A DNA stretch of 64,000 nt from Candidatus Dojkabacteria bacterium (lineage in GTDB: Bacteria > Patescibacteriota > Dojkabacteria > SC72 > JAFGCJ01): contig JAFGCJ010000004.1 of assembly GCA_016932785.1 (NCBI GenBank), positions 5,447 through 69,446 on the forward strand, read 5' to 3'. Of this stretch, positions 1,130-27,680 are shown in pieces. The position numbers were made by a program, and so were the translations under genes. The stretch's first letter is position 1, and every line of letters starts with the position of its first letter. The notes below the pieces were generated by a model that searched no databases, had not been told where the DNA came from, and saw only the letters and a program-made list of their open reading frames with translations.

Positions 1130-2125
1130 TTACAGGTTATCTAAAATATATTGTTGTATAGGAATTGCAACTTCTGAGGGTTCTCCTTCGGTGGGTAGGT
1201 AATGAATTCTGAGCCCTGGATCATGGTTGATCTCGTTAAGAGCATGCTTCTTGGATGGATCAGTGATGTCTGGAGTAATTAGATCTACTCCTGCAAGTTT
1301 AAGATTTAGAACCTTGCTCGCTTTTATCGCGAGATTCTTGTAGTCCTCATGAACTTCAGCAAGGCACTCATGAGTTGTCCCTCCTGTACTAAGGTTTGCG
1401 TTGAATCTTATTCTTACCTTTTGTTCTTTGGAGAGTATGTCCTCAAGTGAAAATCCCTGGTCTGCGAGTGCTTTTTCTGTTTCCACGTCGATTGGGGTAG
1501 GGCTCAGGCCCTGTGCCTTTCTGGCGGAATTATTTTCATCAATTAGCACTCGAATACTTGATTTGCCATCACCTTCTACTAATGGTGGCATTCTACGGGA
1601 AGCGGCGATAACTTGATCTCCAAGAACGAGTAGTCTGTAGTTTTCTCCCTTTATGAATTCTTCGACTAGAACTTTATTTTCTGACTTTCCTTTATATTTG
1701 TCGTAGGCGTATTTGAATGCGTTTTCGGTCTCTTTTGGGGTATCTGGCAAAATTGTTACACCACTGCCGCCGAATCCTTTAACTGGTTTCACTACGATAT
1801 TCTGTATGCCTTCCTTTTCCATGAATGTATTAATATCTTCGATACTTCCGACGTTTTGCTGTTTGGGTACAGGAATACCATTATCCCCAAGGAATTTGTT
1901 ACAGGTATTTTTGTATGATGCTAGTGTCATGGCTACGCTGTCATTGATAGGCGTGAGGGACTTGTGGATTCTCCAGCTTTTATTTCCTTTCGAGAACTCT
2001 ATTAAAAGAGCTCTAATGAGCATCCTATAGGAGATTCCTAGTTCCTGGGCTGCAAGAAGATAGAAGGCCATCTGATAGTTCTTGGTGATTTCTACAGCCT
2101 CATCAAGGTTAAGTTTTTCTGACAT
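1130..2125 (-). CDS. stand-alone ATP-grasp ligase resembling the cyanophycin synthetase G domain
   Basis: 331-aa ORF with IVVKPVKGFGGSGVTI, NYRLLVLGDQVIAASRRMPPLVEGDGKSSIRVLIDENN and NANLSTGGT motifs. It lies 12 nt upstream of the next gene start on the same strand. Confidence 0.75.
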   Translation of the reverse strand: MSEKLNLDEAVEITKNYQMAFYLLAAQELGISYRMLIRALLIEFSKGNKSWRIHKSLTPINDSVAMTLASYKNTCNKFLGDNGIPVPKQQNVGSIEDINTFMEKEGIQNIVVKPVKGFGGSGVTILPDTPKETENAFKYAYDKYKGKSENKVLVEEFIKGENYRLLVLGDQVIAASRRMPPLVEGDGKSSIRVLIDENNSARKAQGLSPTPIDVETEKALADQGFSLEDILSKEQKVRIRFNANLSTGGTTHECLAEVHEDYKNLAIKASKVLNLKLAGVDLITPDITDPSKKHALNEINHDPGLRIHYLPTEGEPSEVAIPIQQYILDNL

Positions 2126-2135
2126 TGGTGTTTAT

Positions 2136-3653
2136 TTAATGAAGTAAGAACGTTTTGCTTGCGTCGACCAAGAAAAGTTTCAAGTCGCGTCTTCCCATTG
2201 TAACAGGATAGGGGACTTCTTTCATGATGCTGACGATCATTGTTGGTGTTAGTGATACACTGGCAAGTTCCATAGGGATCTCAATGGTAGGTCTTATTCG
2301 CACCGCTTCTTCATCGGTTGTAATTCTATATTCTAGAATTCTTTTGAAGGGCTCGAGTTTTGTGCTATTTTCCTCTTTGTATTTCAACGCTTCAGATCGA
2401 GACTCGAATTTGTCTGGTATCTCAAGACTTGCAAAGTGATCAAGCTCCTCTTTGAAGCCTAGCTTTCCTGCTGTTTTCTCTGCGATTCTTGAAATAACGC
2501 TTCCAGTGTTGATAAGAACTTTTGCTCTAATATTTTCATCTTTAGGTTTCTTCCTTCTTTTCCTTTTGCTTTTAGGTATTATTTTATCTGTTTCCTGAGC
2601 TGGGGCTTGATAGAATAGAGTGGCTTTTTCAACTAGCCCTATTATCTGTCTTCCAGAGACTGCTTTAACTTCATCCTCGACCTCACCACCGAAGAGATTT
2701 TGGGCAACCCGTATTCCATGGTTCGCATCGTTTATCTTCAATCCTTTAACTCTTTCAAGTCGGTCTTTCATTCCTGAAAGATTTGCAGTTTGGATGGCGA
2801 TTCCAGGGCGTGCATTCAGCTCGAAAACAACAGGCCCTTTATCTCGATCAAGTGCTATGTCGGCCCCGAAGAAGCCAAGACCTGTTGCCAGCTGGCATTT
2901 AATAGCTATTTTCAGAATGTTCTTCCAATCAGGTATTTGAATACCGCTGAGTGGTAGCTGTTTCTCATCGGGAGTGGTTTCAATTATTCTATATATATCT
3001 GAAAACATAGATGCGCCTTGTCTGATTATTGCAGTAGTAGTAATTCCGGTGGCGATGTCTATTCCGACACCGATTCCGCCGGCGTGAAGATTGGCCACAC
3101 CACCGGACTGCCTGGTGGGAAGACGAAGCTCGGCCATTATAGGCACTTTGTTGAAAACGATGATTCTTATATCTGGTATACCTTTGTAGGAATAGGGTTT
3201 AAGCAGAGGATGATTAATGATTCTCTCTTCAATTAGTGCAATATCGTGACGGTTTCCCATTGAAAACTGACCGTCTAGAATATTGCTGATATGGTTCTTG
3301 ATCTGGTTCGAGCTCATTGTTGAACCGTCTGGACGAATCCAGTCAAGGCTGTTGGTTTTCTTTCCAACAAAAACGAGAATGCCGCTTCCTCCTGTGCCGA
3401 TGTTTGGCTTAAGCGCAAAGCTTTTAGGTAGTTTGTCCCAATTTAGAGCTTCGAGTTGCTTTTTGTTTCTGATAACTTTGTATATCTCAGCTGTTGGTAT
3501 ACCGTTTCTGGATAGTATCTTTTTACATAATAACTTGTCGTCGGCGATTTCTTTTGCACGACTTCTATTATAGGGGCGCATATAAATAGCGTTTCTCTTG
3601 TTTAGGCCAAGTATTTGTCCGGCGCTCTTTAGTCTTTTAGTCAGTTCTTTCAT
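2136..3653 (-). CDS. alpha-L-glutamate-ligase-like (RimK family) ATP-grasp fused to a C-terminal DUF785 retropepsin-like domain
   Basis: 505-aa ORF. The N-terminal part (ILGLNKRNAIYMRPYN..., ALKPNIGTGGSGILVF, ANLHAGGIGVGID, FELNARPGIAIQ) matches the RimK-related ligase family. The C-terminal ~170 aa ends in MGRRDLKLFLVDASKTFLL, like DUF785/RimB proteins. Confidence 0.75.
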   Translation of the reverse strand: MKELTKRLKSAGQILGLNKRNAIYMRPYNRSRAKEIADDKLLCKKILSRNGIPTAEIYKVIRNKKQLEALNWDKLPKSFALKPNIGTGGSGILVFVGKKTNSLDWIRPDGSTMSSNQIKNHISNILDGQFSMGNRHDIALIEERIINHPLLKPYSYKGIPDIRIIVFNKVPIMAELRLPTRQSGGVANLHAGGIGVGIDIATGITTTAIIRQGASMFSDIYRIIETTPDEKQLPLSGIQIPDWKNILKIAIKCQLATGLGFFGADIALDRDKGPVVFELNARPGIAIQTANLSGMKDRLERVKGLKINDANHGIRVAQNLFGGEVEDEVKAVSGRQIIGLVEKATLFYQAPAQETDKIIPKSKRKRRKKPKDENIRAKVLINTGSVISRIAEKTAGKLGFKEELDHFASLEIPDKFESRSEALKYKEENSTKLEPFKRILEYRITTDEEAVRIRPTIEIPMELASVSLTPTMIVSIMKEVPYPVTMGRRDLKLFLVDASKTFLLH

Positions 3654-4320
3654 CGCTCTTGATTACGTCAAAAAATCTGAGATATTCGATCCATCTTGTT
3701 CCTGAGTATTTTCCTATTGCGTAATTAATTACCAGGGCGACCAGTGAAAGCCAGATATTATCTGTTACCCAGTTACGTATGATGTTAATTCTCATAATCG
3801 CCCATCCTAGCAGTGATATCAGTATTGTTTCTGCGGTAAGTCTTGTTGCTGTAATAAGGTTCTTCTTTATGTAGTTAGAGACAAATCTATCAGTAATTGA
3901 AATGATCATGGCTAGTGGGAGCGGCTGGATGTTCCTGAAGTCAAAAACTGGATTATCACTAGGTATAAATGATGTTGCTGCGATAAAGGCCATTATGGCG
4001 ATGCAGTTCATGGTGTATACAAGTGATAATCTTGAGAGGTAATGGAGCCTTGTTTTTTTAAGGATATTTCTTGTAGCCCAAGAGACAACTACCACAAGAA
4101 TGGTTATAGTTACAGCTTGTCTGGCGCCCATGAAGTAGTAAGCAAAAGACAAGATCATCGGGCTGTATATGCCGAAAGTCTTTATTCCGGTTATGTATCT
4201 TGAAATTGTAGTTGTGGTGACGAATATAGGTACGAAACAAAGAATGAGCAATACTTCATTAGAAATACCAATATCGATTAACCATTGGGAAACGTTTGGC
4301 ATTATTACTTGAGAATTCAA
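3637..4320 (-). CDS. 7-TM membrane protein, of the type usually fused to an inactive transglutaminase
   Basis: 227-aa ORF with about 7 hydrophobic segments and a GIKTFGIYSPMILSFAYYF motif. It overlaps the ligase start by 17 nt, which suggests translational coupling. Confidence 0.6.
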   Translation of the reverse strand: MNSQVIMPNVSQWLIDIGISNEVLLILCFVPIFVTTTTISRYITGIKTFGIYSPMILSFAYYFMGARQAVTITILVVVVSWATRNILKKTRLHYLSRLSLVYTMNCIAIMAFIAATSFIPSDNPVFDFRNIQPLPLAMIISITDRFVSNYIKKNLITATRLTAETILISLLGWAIMRINIIRNWVTDNIWLSLVALVINYAIGKYSGTRWIEYLRFFDVIKSDERTD

Positions 4321-4424: not shown

Positions 4425-4466
4425 AACAATGCAGCAAAATGATTAAGTTCACATTGCTGCATTGTT
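4425..4466 (-). terminator. 13-bp perfect hairpin just downstream of the rplL stop
   Basis: aacaatgcagcaa (4425-4437) is the exact reverse complement of ttgctgcattgtt (4454-4466). The T-run lies on the plus-strand side only, so its role as a minus-strand terminator is uncertain. Confidence 0.4.
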
Positions 4467-4491
4467 TGTTTTCGATTACGAAATAGCTATG

Positions 4492-5001
4492 TTACGCTAA
4501 TTCGACGGTTGCTCCAGCTTCCTCGAGTTTTTTCTTAATTTCCTCTGCTTCTTCTTTAGCAACATCTTCTTTCACGTTTTGAGGAGTTCCCTCTACGAGG
4601 TCCTTTGCCTCCTTAAGCCCAATCTCTGTTATTTCGCGAACTGCTTTTATAACATTGATCTTCTGGTCTCCTGCTGCTTTGAGAACGACGGTGAAAGCGG
4701 ATTTCTCCTCAGCTTCTTCACCAGCGGCAGCTGGTCCGGCTGCAACAGCTACAGGTGCAGCTGCACTAACACCGAACTTTTCCTCCATGACCTTAACGAG
4801 ATCAGCAAGTTCAAGAACGGTCATCTTTTCGACCATCTCCAGAACCTTTTTTGCATCAGCTGAAAGACTTGAGACATCAACTTCCTTTGTCTCTTCCTCG
4901 ACTGGCTTTTCTTCAGTCTTGGGTTCTTCTGCCTTTGCTTCTGGAGCTTTGGCCTCTTCTTTGGCTTCGGGGGCTTTCTTTTCTTTTTTCTCTTCTGCCA
5001 T
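4492..5001 (-). CDS. rplL: 50S ribosomal protein L7/L12 with an N-terminal E/K/A/P-rich extension of about 45 aa
   Basis: [30 protein letters not shown]...[11 protein letters not shown]...[14 protein letters not shown]. Confidence 0.95.
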
Positions 5002-5041: not shown

Positions 5042-5566
5042 CTATTCAGAGCGAGTTTTTTGAATCTCAGATAGTGTACTCACAAATTGTCTGGCGTTTC
5101 CTCTTGAAGTCGACATAAAACCGACCAGGGGAGCATTCATTGTCCCCACAAGTTTTGCCAGGAGTTCCTCTCTTGATGAAATATCTGCGAGCTGGTCTAC
5201 TTTCTCAGCCTCAGCTATTTCGCCGAATAACACGCCAAACTTTGTTTTTAGTATCTCATATGCTTTTTGTAGTTTTTTCAGTGCTTTTGCCGGTCCGATA
5301 GGTTCTTCTTCACAGACGACTATTCCTGTGGCATCCTCAATTTCTTGGAGCTTGGTTGGCTGGTCTGTTTCCTGGGCGGCAATCTTAAATAGGGTATTCT
5401 TGACAACGTGGAAAGTCGCGCCTGATTCCTTTAAATCTTTCTTAAGTTCGGTGATTTGAGTCATTCCAACTCTATCAGTATCTACGACGAAGTAGTTTCT
5501 CCCATTGGAAAGCAGGTCTTTATACTGCTTTAGCATGGCGTTTTTTTGTTCCTTTGTTTTAGCCAT
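5042..5566 (-). CDS. rplJ: 50S ribosomal protein L10
   Basis: 174 aa, immediately upstream of rplL, with typical L10 sequence (VVDTDRVGMTQITELKKDLKESGATFHVVKNTL). Confidence 0.93.
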   Translation of the reverse strand: MAKTKEQKNAMLKQYKDLLSNGRNYFVVDTDRVGMTQITELKKDLKESGATFHVVKNTLFKIAAQETDQPTKLQEIEDATGIVVCEEEPIGPAKALKKLQKAYEILKTKFGVLFGEIAEAEKVDQLADISSREELLAKLVGTMNAPLVGFMSTSRGNARQFVSTLSEIQKTRSE

Positions 5567-5618
5567 AAGTGTATATATAAAGGTTATTGTTTTTTGAAAT
5601 TCGATTAACCTCGGCCTT

Positions 5619-5634
5619 GAGTCATTTCTGACTC
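5619..5634 (-). promoter_or_regulatory. small hairpin in the 125-nt gap upstream of rplJ; a possible L10-leader element or the terminator of the orphan gene
   Basis: gagtca-tttc-tgactc forms a perfect 6-bp stem, with flanking cc/gg extending it. Confidence 0.25.
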
Positions 5635-5691
5635 GGCTGTCTTCGGCTGATGAGAATAATAGGGGATTTAGAGTTGGATGTCAATTGTTGT

Positions 5692-6678
5692 TTATACGAG
5701 TTTTTGTCGAATTATGGGTAAGACTATTTCCATTAGATTTGCCCTGTCAGCTTCACTTATAGATAGGAGTGTTGCAAAGGTTTTTAGAGCTGCATTTCCT
5801 TGCCAGAGTAAGGAAATAGTCGATGTCTCTTGATAATGAGGATTGGTATTTGGTCGTCTTCTCAAGCCGGGTAGTAATGCTTGAGGAGTTGTTGGTCTGA
5901 TTTTGGAGGCAAGCATCGAAGCTATTTGGATTGTCAGGATCTGTGTTCTCTCGGGTTCATGTAAGCTTCTAACCTGTTGTATAGGGCAGATGTGCTCTAT
6001 TACTTTTGCTAACGACACTATGACTTGTGTTCGCGCCGCCTTAAAATCATAGTGTTTTGTGGAATTTACTTCGTGGTTTCCAAATCCATTGATTGTCGCA
6101 AGACATGCTTGTACCAGTAGACCTAATCTTTGTGCAATATCCTCTTGGGCGTAAGCCAGTACGGTAAGTTCTGCTATTATCTGTGCCCGTTGGCAGTAAT
6201 CTCGTTCCCAGTATTCTGGATATACCCAGTCTTCAGTTCCTCGGACTTTATTTACCGGAGAATTGATAAATCCGCCGCGTGTCCAGCCAAGATAATCGGT
6301 GTAGAATCCTATCGCGGCAAGAATAGCGACTCCATCTTCTTCTGGTAGTTGTAAAATAGTATTCTTACCTTCAGAAATCCACCTAGCATTCACTAATTCT
6401 AGGTACATAGTTCTTAAGTATGCAGAATATTCTTTAGGGTCTAAAGGAATGCCGGGATCTTCAGGTCTTGATCGAATACGAACTCCGTATATATCGAAAG
6501 TTGCCACTCCTGTAGAAATATCATAGGTCCAGCATTCTCTATCTCTTCCAGATATATCCACTAGCTCTGTAACCGGGTCAATTTGTATCTGTGGTTTTCT
6601 AAGACTTCCCGCGAGTAAATCAGGGTCGATGGGTGCTATGTATACAGTGTCTTTTGTTACCTGTACATCTGCAGACAT
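5692..6678 (-). CDS. hypothetical protein (328 aa) inserted between rplA and rplJ
   Basis: Long uninterrupted ORF on the operon strand. I recognise no motif, TM segment or signal peptide. It is flanked by 115-nt and 125-nt noncoding gaps. Confidence 0.7.
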   Translation of the reverse strand: MSADVQVTKDTVYIAPIDPDLLAGSLRKPQIQIDPVTELVDISGRDRECWTYDISTGVATFDIYGVRIRSRPEDPGIPLDPKEYSAYLRTMYLELVNARWISEGKNTILQLPEEDGVAILAAIGFYTDYLGWTRGGFINSPVNKVRGTEDWVYPEYWERDYCQRAQIIAELTVLAYAQEDIAQRLGLLVQACLATINGFGNHEVNSTKHYDFKAARTQVIVSLAKVIEHICPIQQVRSLHEPERTQILTIQIASMLASKIRPTTPQALLPGLRRRPNTNPHYQETSTISLLWQGNAALKTFATLLSISEADRANLMEIVLPIIRQKLV

Positions 6679-6793
6679 GGAAACAGAAGGTCAAAATTAT
6701 TGAGGAATTCATCCTTAGGAGAACCCCTCTGAACTATGGGGTATATTATATCCCATATATAGTAAATCGAAAAGATTTTATTGGGGGACGAAT

Positions 6794-7477
6794 CTAGTAG
6801 CAAGTCGTCATATCTACCTTAACACCTGTACCCATTGTTGGACTTAGGGTAACAGATTTTAGAAGACTCTCGGGGGTTTTGCCAATTGTATCTGTTACAG
6901 ATTTTATGACATATAGGATGTTTGCTTTTATTTTTTCGTCTTCTGTGTCAGTTTTTCCTACCGTAAGGTGTACAACACCTCCGTCATCGCATATGAACTT
7001 TGTTTTACCTTTCTTAAATTCCTCGATGCCTGCCTTCACATTCTCTACCAGGGTTCCGGTTTTAGGGTTAGGCATAAGCCCCTTTGGGCCCAGCTCTTTT
7101 CCAAGAACTGCAATTTGACCCATTACAGAGGGGACAGCAAGTACAACATCGAATTCCATCCATCCGTCTTGTATCTTCTTGATAAGGTCATCAAGACCGG
7201 CCTCTATTGCACCGGCCTCCTTTGCTTCCTTTTCCTGATCTTTTTCGCAGAAAATGACGATTCGAGATTCTTCGGTTTTTACTGTATTAGGAAGTGAGAG
7301 TGATCCTTTTATTGATTTTGCCTCTTTGTCTTTTGGAAGGAACATTGCAATGTGAAGATCGATACTTCCAGTAAAGGAGGAGTAGGAAGTATCCTTTGCT
7401 TTCTTTATGGCTTCATCAAGTGGATAGAGCTTGTTTTCAAAGCCTTCAGCCATTTTTTTATATTTTTTTCCTCTCAT
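6794..7477 (-). CDS. rplA: 50S ribosomal protein L1
   Basis: 227 aa with ...FTGSIDLHIAM...GLMPNPKTGT... L1 signatures; sits in the rplK-rplA position. Confidence 0.95.
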   Translation of the reverse strand: MRGKKYKKMAEGFENKLYPLDEAIKKAKDTSYSSFTGSIDLHIAMFLPKDKEAKSIKGSLSLPNTVKTEESRIVIFCEKDQEKEAKEAGAIEAGLDDLIKKIQDGWMEFDVVLAVPSVMGQIAVLGKELGPKGLMPNPKTGTLVENVKAGIEEFKKGKTKFICDDGGVVHLTVGKTDTEDEKIKANILYVIKSVTDTIGKTPESLLKSVTLSPTMGTGVKVDMTTCY

Positions 7478-7551: not shown

Positions 7552-7974
7552 TTAATCGTATTCAATTCCCATTTGTTTTGCTGTTCCCTTAATGATTTCC
7601 TTTGCTTTTTCAATATCTGTTGTGTTGAGGTCAGGCATCTTAATCTCAGCAATTTTGGTTAGTTGCTCGTCTGATAGTTTGCCAACCTTGTCGAGGTTCG
7701 GACGATCTGAACCTTTCTTAATCTTAAGTTCTCTTCTTATGAGTTCTCCTACAGGTGGAGTTCTAGTTATAAACTCAAAACTTCTGTCCTCGTATATCGT
7801 TAAAAGAACAGGAGTTACAACACCTTGTCCTTCTTTTGTTTTATCGTTGAACTGATCACAAAATGCTTTTACATCGATACCAAGCGGACTCAATGTAGGT
7901 CCAATAGGAGGAGCGGGACTTGCTTGTCCTGCCGGTATCTGGAGCTTAACTTTTCTCATAATTTCTTTTGCCAT
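7552..7974 (-). CDS. rplK: 50S ribosomal protein L11
   Basis: VKLQIPAGQASPAPPIGPTLSPLGIDVKAFCDQFN. Confidence 0.95.
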   Translation of the reverse strand: MAKEIMRKVKLQIPAGQASPAPPIGPTLSPLGIDVKAFCDQFNDKTKEGQGVVTPVLLTIYEDRSFEFITRTPPVGELIRRELKIKKGSDRPNLDKVGKLSDEQLTKIAEIKMPDLNTTDIEKAKEIIKGTAKQMGIEYD

Positions 7975-7990: not shown

Positions 7991-8656
7991 TTAAAGTTTT
8001 TTCACTTGACTGAATTCGAGTTCGACCGGTGTTTCTCTTCCAAATATTGAGATGAGAACCTTTACCTTGCCTTTTGTTTCGTCGATTTCGCTTACACTGC
8101 CGACGAAATCCGCAAATGCACCTTCAGTAATTCTTACTGCATCCCCAGGACTAAATGAGGCCTGGAAGGCTGGTTGTTCGATTTCCATAAATTTCATTAT
8201 GGCTTTAACCTCTTCATCAGGAAGTGGGCGAGGGTATTTATCTATTCTGATGAATCCTGTAACACCTTCTGTGTTGGTTATAATCTCCCACGTCTTCTGG
8301 TCGAGAACCATTCTTATCAAAACATATCCAGGGAAAATCTTCTCTTCTTTAACCTTTTGCTTTCCTTCTTTTACAATGATTTTCTTCTGGACCGGAACAA
8401 GAACCTCAGGGATGATTTCCTGGAGTTCTGTTGCCTCGACTCTGAGCTTGATTGCATCAGCAACTTTTTGCTCATGTCCAGACTGGGTGCTGATAACGTA
8501 CCATTGAGGTGCATCCTTTTTTCTTTTAGTAGATTTTTCCTCTATTTGGGTTGTTACTTTTTCTTCTTTTGGCTCTTCAGTCTCTTTGCCAATCTTTGGC
8601 TCCTGAATTTTTGTCGCAGTCTTCTTTGGTGCTTTTGTTTTTTTTGTTGCCATCAA
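7991..8656 (-). CDS. nusG: transcription antitermination factor NusG with a 50-aa K/E/T-rich N-terminal extension
   Basis: The NGN domain starts at QWYVISTQSGHEQKV and the KOW is at FSPGDAVRITEGAFADFVGSV. Sits in the secE-nusG-rplK position. Confidence 0.93.
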   Translation of the reverse strand: MMATKKTKAPKKTATKIQEPKIGKETEEPKEEKVTTQIEEKSTKRKKDAPQWYVISTQSGHEQKVADAIKLRVEATELQEIIPEVLVPVQKKIIVKEGKQKVKEEKIFPGYVLIRMVLDQKTWEIITNTEGVTGFIRIDKYPRPLPDEEVKAIMKFMEIEQPAFQASFSPGDAVRITEGAFADFVGSVSEIDETKGKVKVLISIFGRETPVELEFSQVKKL

Positions 8657-8845
8657 TTATTTAATAACAAATATATCCCGGAGCATATAAAAAAATGCGT
8701 CCAGTCCAATTATCATCGCCGTAATTATAGCAGAAACGATAATTACAAAAACAGTGAGGTTAATGGTGGTTCTTAAAGAAGGCCACTTAACCTGTTTATA
8801 TTCTGATAGTAATTTTTTTATAGATTTTGTAAAGTTGTTTAACAT
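8657..8845 (-). CDS. secE: preprotein translocase subunit SecE (62 aa)
   Basis: The start was moved to the internal ATG (revcomp of 8843-8845), because the longer ORF runs into tRNA-Trp. Sequence is EYKQVKWPSLRTT followed by a single TM. Confidence 0.8.
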   Translation of the reverse strand: MLNNFTKSIKKLLSEYKQVKWPSLRTTINLTVFVIIVSAIITAMIIGLDAFFYMLRDIFVIK

Positions 8846-8906: not shown

Positions 8907-8982
8907 TGGCAGGCCCACTCCGACTCGAACGGAGAAATACGGTTTTGGAGACCGTTGTTTTGCCAATTGAAACTATGGGCCC
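8907..8982 (-). tRNA. tRNA-Trp (CCA anticodon), 3' CCA encoded
   Basis: Hand fold: GGGCCCA TA GTTT CAATTGGCA AAAC A ACGGT CTCCAAA ACCGT ATTT CTCCG TTCGAGT CGGAG TGGGCCT G CCA. Confidence 0.9.
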
Positions 8983-9046: not shown

Positions 9047-9214
9047 CTACTTGAGCTTTGTCTCTTTGTGCTGCGTGTGTTTCTTGCACTTTGGACAGTA
9101 TTTTTGAGCCTCAAGTTTCTCCTGTAGTTGCTTGTTTTTGTATGTTGTGTAGTTTTTCTCTCCGCATTCTTCGCACTTTAGTGCTACGATGACGCGATTT
9201 TCCTTTTTAGCCAT
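9047..9214 (-). CDS. rpmG: 50S ribosomal protein L33 (55 aa; below the ORF-track size cut-off)
   Basis: Hand translation: [55 protein letters not shown], with the CxxC...CxxC zinc ribbon. Sits in the rpmG-tRNA-Trp-secE position. Confidence 0.9.
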
Positions 9215-9337
9215 TTCTTAGGATAGTCTTAAAATAATACATGTATCGCTGACTGGTGAATTATATTGGGTTTAATGTAAGGGGTCAACTTGTTTGGAGA
9301 TAACATGAACACTAGTTTTGATGGTAGAATTTGTGTA

Positions 9338-10955: not shown

Positions 10956-11032
10956 TGGAGCTGGATCTGGGGATCGAACCCAGGACCTCATTCTTACCAT
11001 GAATGCGCTCTAGCCAACTGAGCTAATCCAGC
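10956..11032 (-). tRNA. tRNA-Thr (GGU), CCA encoded
   Basis: GCTGGAT TA GCTC AGTTGGCTA GAGC G CATTC ATGGTAA GAATG AGGTC CTGGG TTCGATC CCCAG ATCCAGC T CCA. Confidence 0.9.
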
Positions 11033-11070
11033 GTTTTTTTATTATATTTCATTTTTGTTTATTGGACTAC

Positions 11071-11156
11071 TGGTGCAGGGGGTGGGATTTGAACCCACGA
11101 AGTCTTGCGACGCTGGATTTACAGTCCAGTCCATTTGGCCGCTCTGGCACCCCTGC
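11071..11156 (-). tRNA. tRNA-Tyr (GUA) with a long variable arm, CCA encoded
   Basis: Acceptor GCAGGGG/CCCCTGC; anticodon stem-loop CTGGA CTGTAAA TCCAG; T arm GTGGG TTCAAAT CCCAC; ends A CCA. Confidence 0.9.
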
Positions 11157-11164
11157 TTTATTTT

Positions 11165-11446
11165 GTACTTTATTGTGACTTCGACGATGGGCATATCCCC
11201 AAGTCTCGTCACAATAAAGTACAAAATTATTGTATCGGTATTATCTTCGACAATGAGCGTATCCTCAAGTCTCGATAATGAAATGTAATAAATTTTAGGT
11301 TTCTGTTATGGGCATATCCCTAAGTCTCCTCACAATAAAGTACAAAATTATTGTATCGGTATTATCTTCGACGATGGGCGTATCCCCAAATCTCGGCGAA
11401 ATCGGTATTATCTTCGACGATGGGCGTATCCCCAAATCTCGGCGAA
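11165..11446. repeat. composite repeat array in the tRNA-Thr/tRNA-Tyr spacer
   Basis: Five copies of a ~30-nt unit, cttcgacgatgggcRtatccccaaRtctcg, at 11179, 11245, 11308 (partial), 11366 and 11412. A 65-nt direct repeat at 11187-11251 and 11308-11372 matches 63/65. A perfect 46-nt tandem duplication spans 11355-11400 and 11401-11446. A 15-bp perfect inverted repeat (11165-11179 with 11208-11222) encloses the first unit. Confidence 0.85.
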
Positions 11447-11520
11447 AAAAGAGCTAAATTTGCAGATGAGGCAAAATTTCAGATGCGAAGCATGACGCTG
11501 AGCCACATTTGCATACTCTA

Positions 11521-11594
11521 AGCCGATGGAGAGATTCGAACTCTCGACCTACGGTTTACAAAACCGTTGCTCTGACCAACTGAGCTACATCGGC
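11521..11594 (-). tRNA. tRNA-Thr (UGU), 3' CCA not encoded
   Basis: GCCGATG TA GCTC AGTTGGTCA GAGC A ACGGT TTTGTAA ACCGT AGGTC GAGAG TTCGAAT CTCTC CATCGGC T, followed by TAG. Confidence 0.9.
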
Positions 11595-11694
11595 TTTTTC
11601 AAGTACATGATTATACTACACATGTTCAGTTGAAGGCACAAGTGCTAATTATGTGTGTTGTTGTTATTTGTAAGGGGAAATAGGCAAAAAAAGA

Positions 11695-26390: not shown

Positions 26391-27680
26391 ATGGCTATAA
26401 GCAATAAATCTTCCAGTGCTCTAGCAAAGACTGCTGCTAGTTCTTCATCGAAATCTGCAAAGCAGGATGATCCGGGTTTTAAGGTGAGTATTCCTAGTCT
26501 TCAGGATCTTCTTGAGGCCGGTGCACATTTTGGGCACAAGACCAGCAGATGGAATCCAAAGATGAAGAAGTATATTTTTGATACGCGCTCAGGGATTCAC
26601 ATAATCGATCTTACCCAGACGATAAATCTTCTTGAAGATGCTGTGCGATTTCTCCATAAAGCTTCTAAACAGGGTAATATTCTACTCGTAGGAACTAAGG
26701 GTCAGGCTGCAACTCTGATCAAGAATTCAGGTGCTGATCATGGGGCTTTTTACATAAGCAGACGTTGGCCTGGTGGGCTTCTTACTAATTATAAGAACAT
26801 AAGGAGGAGTGTTAAACGATTGATTGAAATCGAGGAAAATCTGGCCTCGCATAAGGGCTATGAAACAAAGAAGGAGAGGATGGTTATGGAAAAAGATAGA
26901 GATCGACTTTCAAAACTATATGAGGGTGTGAGGTTCATGGACAAGGAGCCAGCAGCTATGGTTGTTATCGATACCAGGGTTGAGAAAAATGCTATTAAGG
27001 AAGCTAAAAAACGTGGAATCAAGGTGGCTGGACTTATAGACACAAATTGTGATCCTAATCTTGTAGATTATCCTATCCCTGCTAATGACGACGCTCTTAA
27101 ATCCATTAGGTTGTTTGTTGAGACGTTGGTTCATGGGTTTTCGGGTTCAGATACGAGCGCGAGGCTTATTGGATTAAGAAATGATCATGCTGCAAAGCTT
27201 GCTGATCTTGAAGCAAAAGCTGTTGCTGAGGAGGAGAGAATTAAGAGAGAAAAAGAGCTTGAGGTTCAGAGGTTGAAGGCAATGAAGGAAGGTAAGGTCG
27301 TTGAAACCGGACGAACAGATACAAAAGTATTTAGGATAGTTAAAAAAGAGGACCAGGAGAATGCTGAAGAAAAAGAAACTACTAAAGAGCTTTCTAATGC
27401 AGAGACGAAGGTTGAGACAAAGGTAAAGAAAGCTCAATCTAAGGTAGCAAAAAAGGAAGTCAAGCCAAGTAAAACCTCTAAGAAAAAAGTTACCCCGAAA
27501 ACTAAAAAGACAAAGAAGACCGTCTCTAAGAAGACAACAAAGAAATCTACAAAAAAACCTTCTAGGGAAACGACCAAGAAGACTACTAAGAAAACAACGA
27601 AAAGGAAGTCTACAAAGAAGACACCAGTAAAGAAAACGAGGTCCAAGTCTTCGAAAAAGACCTCGAAATCCAAGAAGTAA
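26391..27680 (+). CDS. rpsB: 30S ribosomal protein S2 with N-terminal (~30 aa) and C-terminal (~165 aa, Lys/Thr/Ser-rich) extensions
   Basis: An AAGGAGG Shine-Dalgarno lies 7 nt before the ATG at 26391. The core contains LLEAGAHFGHKTSRWNPKM. The tail is KKTTKK-type low complexity. Confidence 0.95.
   Translation: MAISNKSSSALAKTAASSSSKSAKQDDPGFKVSIPSLQDLLEAGAHFGHKTSRWNPKMKKYIFDTRSGIHIIDLTQTINLLEDAVRFLHKASKQGNILLVGTKGQAATLIKNSGADHGAFYISRRWPGGLLTNYKNIRRSVKRLIEIEENLASHKGYETKKERMVMEKDRDRLSKLYEGVRFMDKEPAAMVVIDTRVEKNAIKEAKKRGIKVAGLIDTNCDPNLVDYPIPANDDALKSIRLFVETLVHGFSGSDTSARLIGLRNDHAAKLADLEAKAVAEEERIKREKELEVQRLKAMKEGKVVETGRTDTKVFRIVKKEDQENAEEKETTKELSNAETKVETKVKKAQSKVAKKEVKPSKTSKKKVTPKTKKTKKTVSKKTTKKSTKKPSRETTKKTTKKTTKRKSTKKTPVKKTRSKSSKKTSKSKK

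Follow-up and report, generated by a model that had tools for sequence, protein, structure and literature searches.

An orphan reading frame between rplA and rplJ of a Dojkabacteria genome lies in a variable slot at the seam of two ribosomal protein operons

Breaks in the rplKAJL block of ribosomal protein genes mostly fall between rplKA and rplJL (PMC4481853). The element bound by L10(L12)4 combines a kink-turn with a hairpin that has two unpaired adenosines (Fu et al., PMC3616713). Transfer hotspots without mobile elements, bounded by core genes, have been linked to homologous recombination and natural transformation (Oliveira et al., 2017, PMC5635113). These systems are the closest to the locus considered here, which lies in a 64,000-nucleotide (nt) stretch of DNA (the window) from a contig of Candidatus Dojkabacteria, a member of the candidate phyla radiation (CPR)/Patescibacteria. 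Positions below are those of the window and its features are on the minus strand unless stated otherwise. An orphan open reading frame (ORF) with an ATG start (5692-6678, 987 nt including the stop codon, 328 amino acids (aa)) is located between rplA (6794-7477), coding for L1 (Pfam PF00687, E = 3.6e-45), and rplJ (5042-5566), coding for L10 (PF00466, E = 2.9e-20). The upstream gap covers 115 nt (6679-6793) and the downstream gap 125 nt (5567-5691). A preliminary description had reported this uninterrupted same-strand ORF with gaps of this size, and both the coordinates and the Pfam-identified neighbours agree with it.

The context of the ORF is explained by known biology: it is an orphan in a hotspot flanked by core genes. 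We consider it, with a probability of about 0.6, to be a genuine but dispensable lineage-specific accessory gene in a turnover hotspot between two transcription units.

Among the promoter-like sites around the orphan ORF, the best one belongs to rplJ. This site, P(L10) (TTGACA-17-TATTAT, 5656-5684), matches at 11 of 12 positions, and its -35 hexamer starts 7 nt past the orphan ORF stop codon. The L10(L12)4 leader core (5609-5646) consists of CCGAAGACAG, an AA-bulged 9-bp stem capped by a GAAA loop (5614-5637), and CCGAGG; it ends 42 nt before the rplJ ATG. The minimum-energy fold of the leader RNA (-16 kcal/mol, z = -2.38) contains the 9-bp stem, the GAAA loop and the two-adenosine bulge. In the preliminary description a 6-bp hairpin of the downstream gap was counted as part of the noncoding flank of the orphan gene. 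The hairpin (GAGUCA-GAAA-UGACUC, 5619-5634) is real, but its six pairs are the apical ones of the 9-bp AA-bulged stem, which makes it the tip of the rplJ leader rather than a flank of the orphan gene.

When the window and seven relatives are aligned over the stretch preceding rplJ, both P(L10) hexamers are invariant and are followed by GAAGA(C/A)AGC, the hairpin and GCCGAGG. The GAAGA, GC and GAG of the kink-turn flanks are invariant or nearly so in the eight genomes, and the consensus fold of the leader has compensatory changes in three of the six predicted pairs. A pattern search over 13 loci of the clade located the promoter in 11 of them (102-145 nt before rplJ); the leader core was found in 10, at the same position. 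The Rfam model of the L10 leader (RF00557) aligns across its whole length to 5567-5664, matching the consensus CCGaAGACAG...CCGAGG, with a score of 24.4 bits (E = 0.78), which is below the gathering threshold of 44. The element shares with known L10 leaders the kink-turn flanks that mimic the L10 site of 23S rRNA (GAAGA...AGC / GCCGAGG) and the AA-bulged hairpin directly upstream of rplJ. It differs from them in its small size (a 38-nt core, about 42 nt from the core to the ATG) and lacks a segment of about 44 nt and the terminator of the Rfam model, which accounts for the sub-threshold score. We would class the predicted element as a short L10-leader variant and not as a member of RF00557 at the curated threshold.

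Since rplJ-rplL has a conserved promoter and an L10 leader of its own, it can be regarded as an independent, autoregulated transcription unit, which places the orphan ORF between two operons. On the sequence evidence, rplJL is thus a separate unit transcribed from P(L10), with a leader predicted to be autoregulatory. The earlier view that the ORF splits an operon does not hold, because a promoter and a leader conserved in the clade follow directly after its stop codon. The seam after rplA is also the split point in other bacteria (PMC4481853). The locus departs from the rplKA/rplJL(-rpoBC) two-unit cluster in what follows rplL: a cluster of seven-transmembrane (7TM) transglutaminase and ATP-grasp genes instead of rpoBC.

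The content of the slot between rplA and rplJ varies strongly among related bacteria. Relatives were retrieved with L10 as the anchor, which gave 12 related Dojkabacteria genomes with an L10 identity of 53-66% (66% for the nearest one). ORFs on the same strand and without a Pfam family occupy the slot in L081 (437 aa), L083 (373 aa), L086 (427 aa) and L171 (414 aa; L170 carries a truncated version). Equally family-less ORFs on the opposite strand are found in L082 (303 aa), L085 (512 aa) and L172 (261 aa, accompanied by a partial ORF). L087 has ddl, a Mur ligase gene and a hydrolase gene at this place, L169 has ddl, and the slot is empty in L084 (317 nt) and L168 (209 nt). Altogether, two of the 12 relatives have an empty slot, two have cell-wall genes and eight have other family-less ORFs on either strand, so that at least eight different contents exist among the 13 genomes including the window. 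A more distant Dojkabacteria genome, L001, contains about 4.5 kb of assorted genes there. The neighbouring junctions (nusG/rplK/rplA, rplJ/rplL and rplL/7TM-transglutaminase/ATP-grasp) are constant. In nucleotide comparisons, the relatives share only the promoter and leader segment with the window's slot, and six-frame tblastn with the orphan protein found no cryptic copy in any of the relatives' loci. None of the nine family-less slot occupants matched Pfam or PADLOC even at E = 0.1.

The preliminary description had also considered a fixed insertion and had suggested looking for homologues in the same slot of related genomes. A fixed insertion is at odds with a slot that is empty, carries ddl or holds other orphans on either strand in the 12 relatives; no homologue was confirmed there, and the contents differ from genome to genome.

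A background census based on hidden Markov models (HMMs) of L1 and L10 used loci from an L1 scan of a genome collection and an L10 scan of metagenomes. Hits of the former were dominated by the universal KGLMPNPK motif and came mostly from Firmicutes, with one distant Dojkabacteria genome among them; the relatives from the latter were at most 37% identical. In this sample of diverse bacteria the gap between rplA and rplJ does not exceed 500 nt in 52 of 61 genomes, and the remaining 9 have 1.2-4.5 kb of unrelated genes. A recurring occupant in several genomes of Lachnospiraceae, which belong to an unrelated phylum, is a protein of 430-462 aa with an N-terminal membrane anchor (L048 4674-6032, L059 6838-8130, L072 6723-8111). 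In 29 metagenomic loci (including L095, L101, L103 and L106) the L1 HMM found no L1 gene in the 3-7 kb upstream of rplJ, which is located at about 7001; these lineages either lack L1 or carry rplKA away from rplJL. A full separation of the two units was also observed in L086, a 1.13-Mb genome with no rplA within 6 kb. Two very large ORFs, one of 862 aa and one of at least 746 aa that runs off the locus end, have no Pfam family and are located there upstream of the slot gene on the opposite strand (L086 1-4505, minus strand). As these upstream genes point the other way, the L086 slot gene needs a private promoter. The homologous slot genes of L171 and L086 share an upstream motif, GAAATAAAATGGCTAACATTATACTATAGG (L171 about 150-330, L086 about 4450-4600), which suggests such a promoter for both.

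The same variability bears on a possible role in translation. The ORF, suggested earlier to be a possible lineage-specific ribosome-associated factor, might encode such a factor or a translation factor whose position reflects its function. Its same-strand location in the most conserved ribosomal neighbourhood and its probable co-transcription with rplKA, after which no terminator was found, would fit such a role. However, the two empty slots (L084, L168), the ddl and Mur ligase genes of L087 and L169 and the opposite-strand orphans of L082, L085 and L172 disfavour it. Besides, no RNA-binding or ribosomal domain was found in the protein with Pfam or NCBIfam, and the product is acidic and lysine-poor, unlike typical ribosome-binding proteins. 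We consider this explanation very improbable and would not expect the orphan protein to be part of the ribosome.

Several features of the slot correspond to the hotspots described by Oliveira et al. (PMC5635113): constant flanks (rplA and rplJ), varying content including empty states, the lack of recognisable mobile-element genes, and lineage-specific occupants without known function. Those hotspots are linked to natural transformation, and the window encodes DprA. The differences are that the published hotspots were defined within species pangenomes by a statistical threshold, while the slot was compared across genomes with 53-66% identical L10, and that each slot here has one to three genes. 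The remnant of a mobile element or prophage integrated at the slot would explain the patchy distribution and the atypical codon usage of the ORF. Contrary to this, the ORF is not bracketed by direct or inverted repeats, neither an integrase nor a transposase gene accompanies it, the nearest tRNA gene is 2.2 kb away, phage records, plasmids, IMG/VR and PHROGs gave no match, and the GC (guanine plus cytosine) content equals that of the surroundings. The absence of mobile-element repeats had been stated before and was confirmed, as only short chance-level matches occur around the ORF. We regard a mobile-element remnant as the least probable of the explanations considered.

The orphan ORF is a true orphan and a global singleton, which belongs to no curated family searched. 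Its product had no match in Pfam, NCBIfam, PADLOC or the PDB sequences at E up to 1-10, and the best PHROGs hit (E = 0.36) is at chance level. Both a word-indexed search of 5.8 billion clustered proteins and an exhaustive HMMER search of 1.84 billion cluster representatives returned only the protein itself. tblastn against 50,697 phage records and 72,556 plasmids gave nothing meaningful, and a single-protein scan of IMG/VR viral contigs gave nothing. A profile built from four of the same-strand slot ORFs recovered just two of its own seeds. For comparison, clear Pfam families were found in all 20 other sampled genes of the window and in the three ribosomal-protein neighbours. The lack of a recognisable motif, as initially described, is therefore borne out by the empty Pfam, NCBIfam, PHROG, PADLOC and PDB searches, and the ORF is not made ordinary by a match to a known family in any library searched. 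The preliminary description had further reasoned that absence from close relatives, with no homologues anywhere, would indicate a spurious or decaying ORF. The ORF is indeed absent from the relatives and has no confirmed homologue, but it is intact and the slot habitually holds genes of this kind. The lack of a homologue or domain in any library, the small streamlined genome and the annotation as a hypothetical protein are common to orphan genes of CPR/Patescibacteria. The orphan ORF differs from these in being exceptional within its window and in its surroundings, which are no typical variable island but the best-conserved gene neighbourhood known.

A number of observations speak against a genuine but dispensable accessory gene; they concern the coding signal of the ORF, the relationships of the slot genes and the scale on which turnover was seen. 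In a leave-one-out codon model, to which antisense frames were added as background, the ORF scored +0.06, the third-lowest value among 48 genes. The genes have a mean of +0.32 (standard deviation 0.14) and 27 shadow ORFs a mean of -0.16 (standard deviation 0.13), with one shadow ORF scoring above the orphan ORF. The amino acid composition is atypical for the genome as well, with 3.4% lysine against 7.8% and more glutamine, threonine, proline and arginine.

The low codon score and the atypical composition could be expected of a non-functional ORF, such as what is left of a decaying acquired gene, or a long frame whose translation into a useful protein has ceased or never took place. Its status as a global singleton, the lack of a conserved promoter or structure upstream and the mean predicted local distance difference test (pLDDT) value of 37.5 in a single-sequence AlphaFold2 model point in the same direction. 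The last argument loses force because a low pLDDT has to be expected when no alignment is supplied; a value of 40.2 was reached for the L086 slot protein P0122 in the same kind of prediction, and both models were too poor for a fold search. An intact frame of 328 codons is very unlikely without selection: at the composition of the ORF the chance of 328 stop-free codons is about 5e-8 per start. The compactness of CPR genomes and the reduction of the slot to 209-317 nt in two relatives also speak against a non-functional ORF. Two undoubted membrane-protein genes of the window (an M50 peptidase and a 7TM protein) have lower codon scores than the orphan ORF, and the codon log-odds are clearly higher in frame (+0.16) than in the other two frames (-0.72 and -0.60). 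The opposite strand has no competing ORF longer than 72 aa, and the NCBI annotation predicts an identical 328-aa product (hypothetical protein JW710_04565, Candidatus Dojkabacteria). Shine-Dalgarno motifs precede just 8 of 50 genes in the window and are rare genome-wide, so the missing motif at the orphan ORF is uninformative. A non-functional ORF is thus rather unlikely, and the ORF is probably a real gene with atypical codon and amino acid usage. The protein is predicted to be acidic (pI 5.65), without transmembrane segments or a signal peptide, and the low-confidence AlphaFold2 model has a short beta-rich N-terminus followed by helices. Judging from these predictions, it is most likely a soluble, largely helical cytoplasmic protein.

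The relationships of the slot genes were evaluated on a neighbour-joining tree of seven flanking core proteins (1588 columns, 300 bootstraps). The five genomes with same-strand orphans form one clade together with L085 in 275 of 300 bootstraps, and the empty, ddl and L082 states are outside it. This distribution is compatible with a single ancestral acquisition and hints at shared ancestry of the same-strand orphans over a free exchange of cassettes. One gene may have been acquired in this slot by the common ancestor of L081, L083, L085, L086, L170/171 and the window and have diverged almost beyond recognition, possibly in an arms race. As such a hyper-divergent positional orthologue, the orphan ORF would belong to a new, very fast-evolving family co-expressed with ribosomal-protein operons, which overlaps with the accessory gene we favour.

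Some similarity between the slot proteins was detected. The clearest case is that of the L086 (427 aa) and L171 (414 aa) proteins, which are homologous, with 59.7% identity and a ratio of nonsynonymous to synonymous substitution rates of about 0.2. This gene is under purifying selection, and hence the rplA/rplJ slot does hold real genes; it diverges 2.55 times faster than the flanking core genes. The orphan protein and the 373-aa protein of L083 gave a Smith-Waterman z of 7.05 (p = 7e-5), a BLASTP E of 2e-5 in a database of 10 sequences and an hhalign P of 3.5e-4 over 96 columns, compared to 0.046 for the best of 30 controls. Lower Smith-Waterman z-scores were obtained for L083 against L081 (5.5) and L081 against L086 (3.2), and as a group the same-strand slot pairs exceeded the controls (Mann-Whitney p = 0.03-0.04). 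All same-strand slot ORFs are 328-437 aa long, encode soluble proteins and end 0-47 nt before the -35 hexamer of P(L10).

Other tests gave no support for such a relationship. For the same-strand slot ORFs phmmer found nothing, HMM rank tests gave only E = 0.3-0.7, and the tblastn search of the relatives' loci was negative. In a comparison of the three-way alignment with sequences shuffled and then realigned, 6 of 40 controls were as good and the signal disappeared; the significance from column shuffling of this alignment was rejected as biased, as the alignment had been optimised for the real sequences. Had orthologues in L081, L083 and the window diverged at the relative rate measured for the L086/L171 gene, an identity of 38-43% would be expected, yet the observed similarity is far below this, which implies either a much faster divergence in these lineages or repeated gene replacement. 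Besides, a shared strand in four of five lineages has a chance probability of about 0.19 and is thus not unusual. A hyper-divergent orthologue is possible, though we consider it doubtful. An extended form of this idea appears unlikely to us: the same-strand slot genes would be one ancestral gene evolving well above the 2.55-fold excess, expressed on ribosomal read-through transcripts, with a pace of change set by an arms race against phages or the host of the episymbionts, and the clade would use the rplA/rplJ seam as a dedicated landing pad at which new genes are highly expressed.

The scale of the comparison is another point to be considered: the turnover was seen across genomes that are 53-66% identical in L10, that is, over long distances and not within a species. 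Finally, both read-through transcription of the ORF and recombination-driven turnover of the slot are steps that we infer.

For the accessory gene that we favour, these steps can be outlined as follows. The upstream unit ends with rplA, and rplJ-rplL starts at its own conserved sigma-70 promoter and carries the L10 kink-turn leader, which would insulate rplJL autoregulation from the slot content. A terminator scan found no terminator-like site after rplA in the upstream gap, and hence read-through from the strong promoters of the ribosomal-protein genes upstream may account for most of the transcription of the orphan ORF. A promoter-like site upstream of rpmG (TTGACC-17-TATAAT, 11 of 12 positions, 9260-9288) is the likely start of the rpmG-tRNA-secE-nusG-rplKA transcript, with possible read-through into the orphan ORF. 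The two highly conserved flanks may act as anchors for homologous recombination, so that the slot content would be easily exchanged or lost.

A private promoter could contribute to the expression of the orphan ORF. The upstream gap was initially described as containing a TATAAT inside a near-palindrome, and this sequence, ATGGGGTATATTATATCCCAT (6736-6756), is present. It occurs only once, was found in none of 100 shuffles and has the TATAAT at 6750-6745 on the minus strand, with a weak -35 match (3 of 6). It is not an element shared with the relatives: neither the near-palindrome with its TATAAT nor the 115-nt gap is conserved in any of them, and the sequence is restricted to the window's genome. 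The fold of the gap is no better than that of shuffled sequence (z = -1.2). With neither conservation nor unusual structure, the palindrome was rejected as a conserved operator or promoter; the TATAAT could be a private -10 element of the orphan ORF. A 12-pair bulged stem-loop, GAGGGGUUCUCC-UAA-GGAUGAAUUCCUC followed by AAUAAUUUU, is predicted at 6702-6729, with about 23 nt between it and the orphan start codon. This stem-loop, which the terminator scan did not flag, may represent a weak terminator of rplKA or a structure of the 5'-untranslated region.

The first of the remaining genes of the upstream unit, rpmG (9047-9214), probably codes for ribosomal protein L33 of 55 aa, judging from synteny with the PF00471-annotated 55-aa genes of the relatives. 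It is followed by the tRNA-Trp (CCA) gene (8907-8982), located between rpmG and secE. secE (8657-8845) probably codes for 62 aa, with a start placed according to the 60-64-aa SecE genes of the relatives; the 111-aa ORF with a TTG start proposed by the ORF finder overruns the tRNA-Trp gene. nusG (7991-8656) and rplK (7552-7974, coding for L11) are alignable with their counterparts in the relatives, and rplA is the final gene of the unit.

Downstream of rplJ, rplL (4492-5001) codes for L7/L12 (Pfam PF16320 and PF00542). The protein is 169 aa long, and its dimerisation domain, which starts at residue 51, is preceded by an N-terminal extension (about 50 residues) with a high content of lysine, glutamate, alanine and proline; the length of L12 varies between 110 and 171 aa across the relatives. 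Immediately after rplL (1130-4320) there is a 7TM-transglutaminase gene and then three to five ATP-grasp genes (ATPgrasp_ST / RimK-like). This cluster, in the position held by rpoBC in most bacteria, is present after rplL in every Dojkabacteria relative examined (L081-L087, L168-L170). Strictly syntenic with rplJL, it resembles a system for peptide ligation or protein modification.

Two further features of the window are located outside this region. A tRNA cluster (Thr(GGT), Tyr(GTA) and Thr(TGT)) is found at 10956-11595, where several of the mechanically listed ORFs are translations of these tRNA genes. Ribosomal protein S2, encoded on the plus strand (26391-27680), has 429 aa, of which just residues 40-248 fall within the Pfam S2 domain; the roughly 180 residues that follow form a C-terminal extension without assignment.

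Overall, an apparent break in a highly conserved gene order turns out to be the known seam between two operons, and a supposed noncoding flank with a hairpin to be the promoter and autoregulatory leader of the neighbouring rplJ, which makes the locus a cautionary example. The compact L10-leader variant with its promoter is conserved across a CPR clade and missed by the Rfam threshold; taking it into account could improve the annotation of Patescibacteria. The slot itself is a small, precisely bounded hotspot with at least nine proteins without a known family next to highly expressed core genes. If the slot proteins are indeed functional and fast-evolving, it would be a convenient place to seek host-interaction or defence genes in these unculturable organisms.

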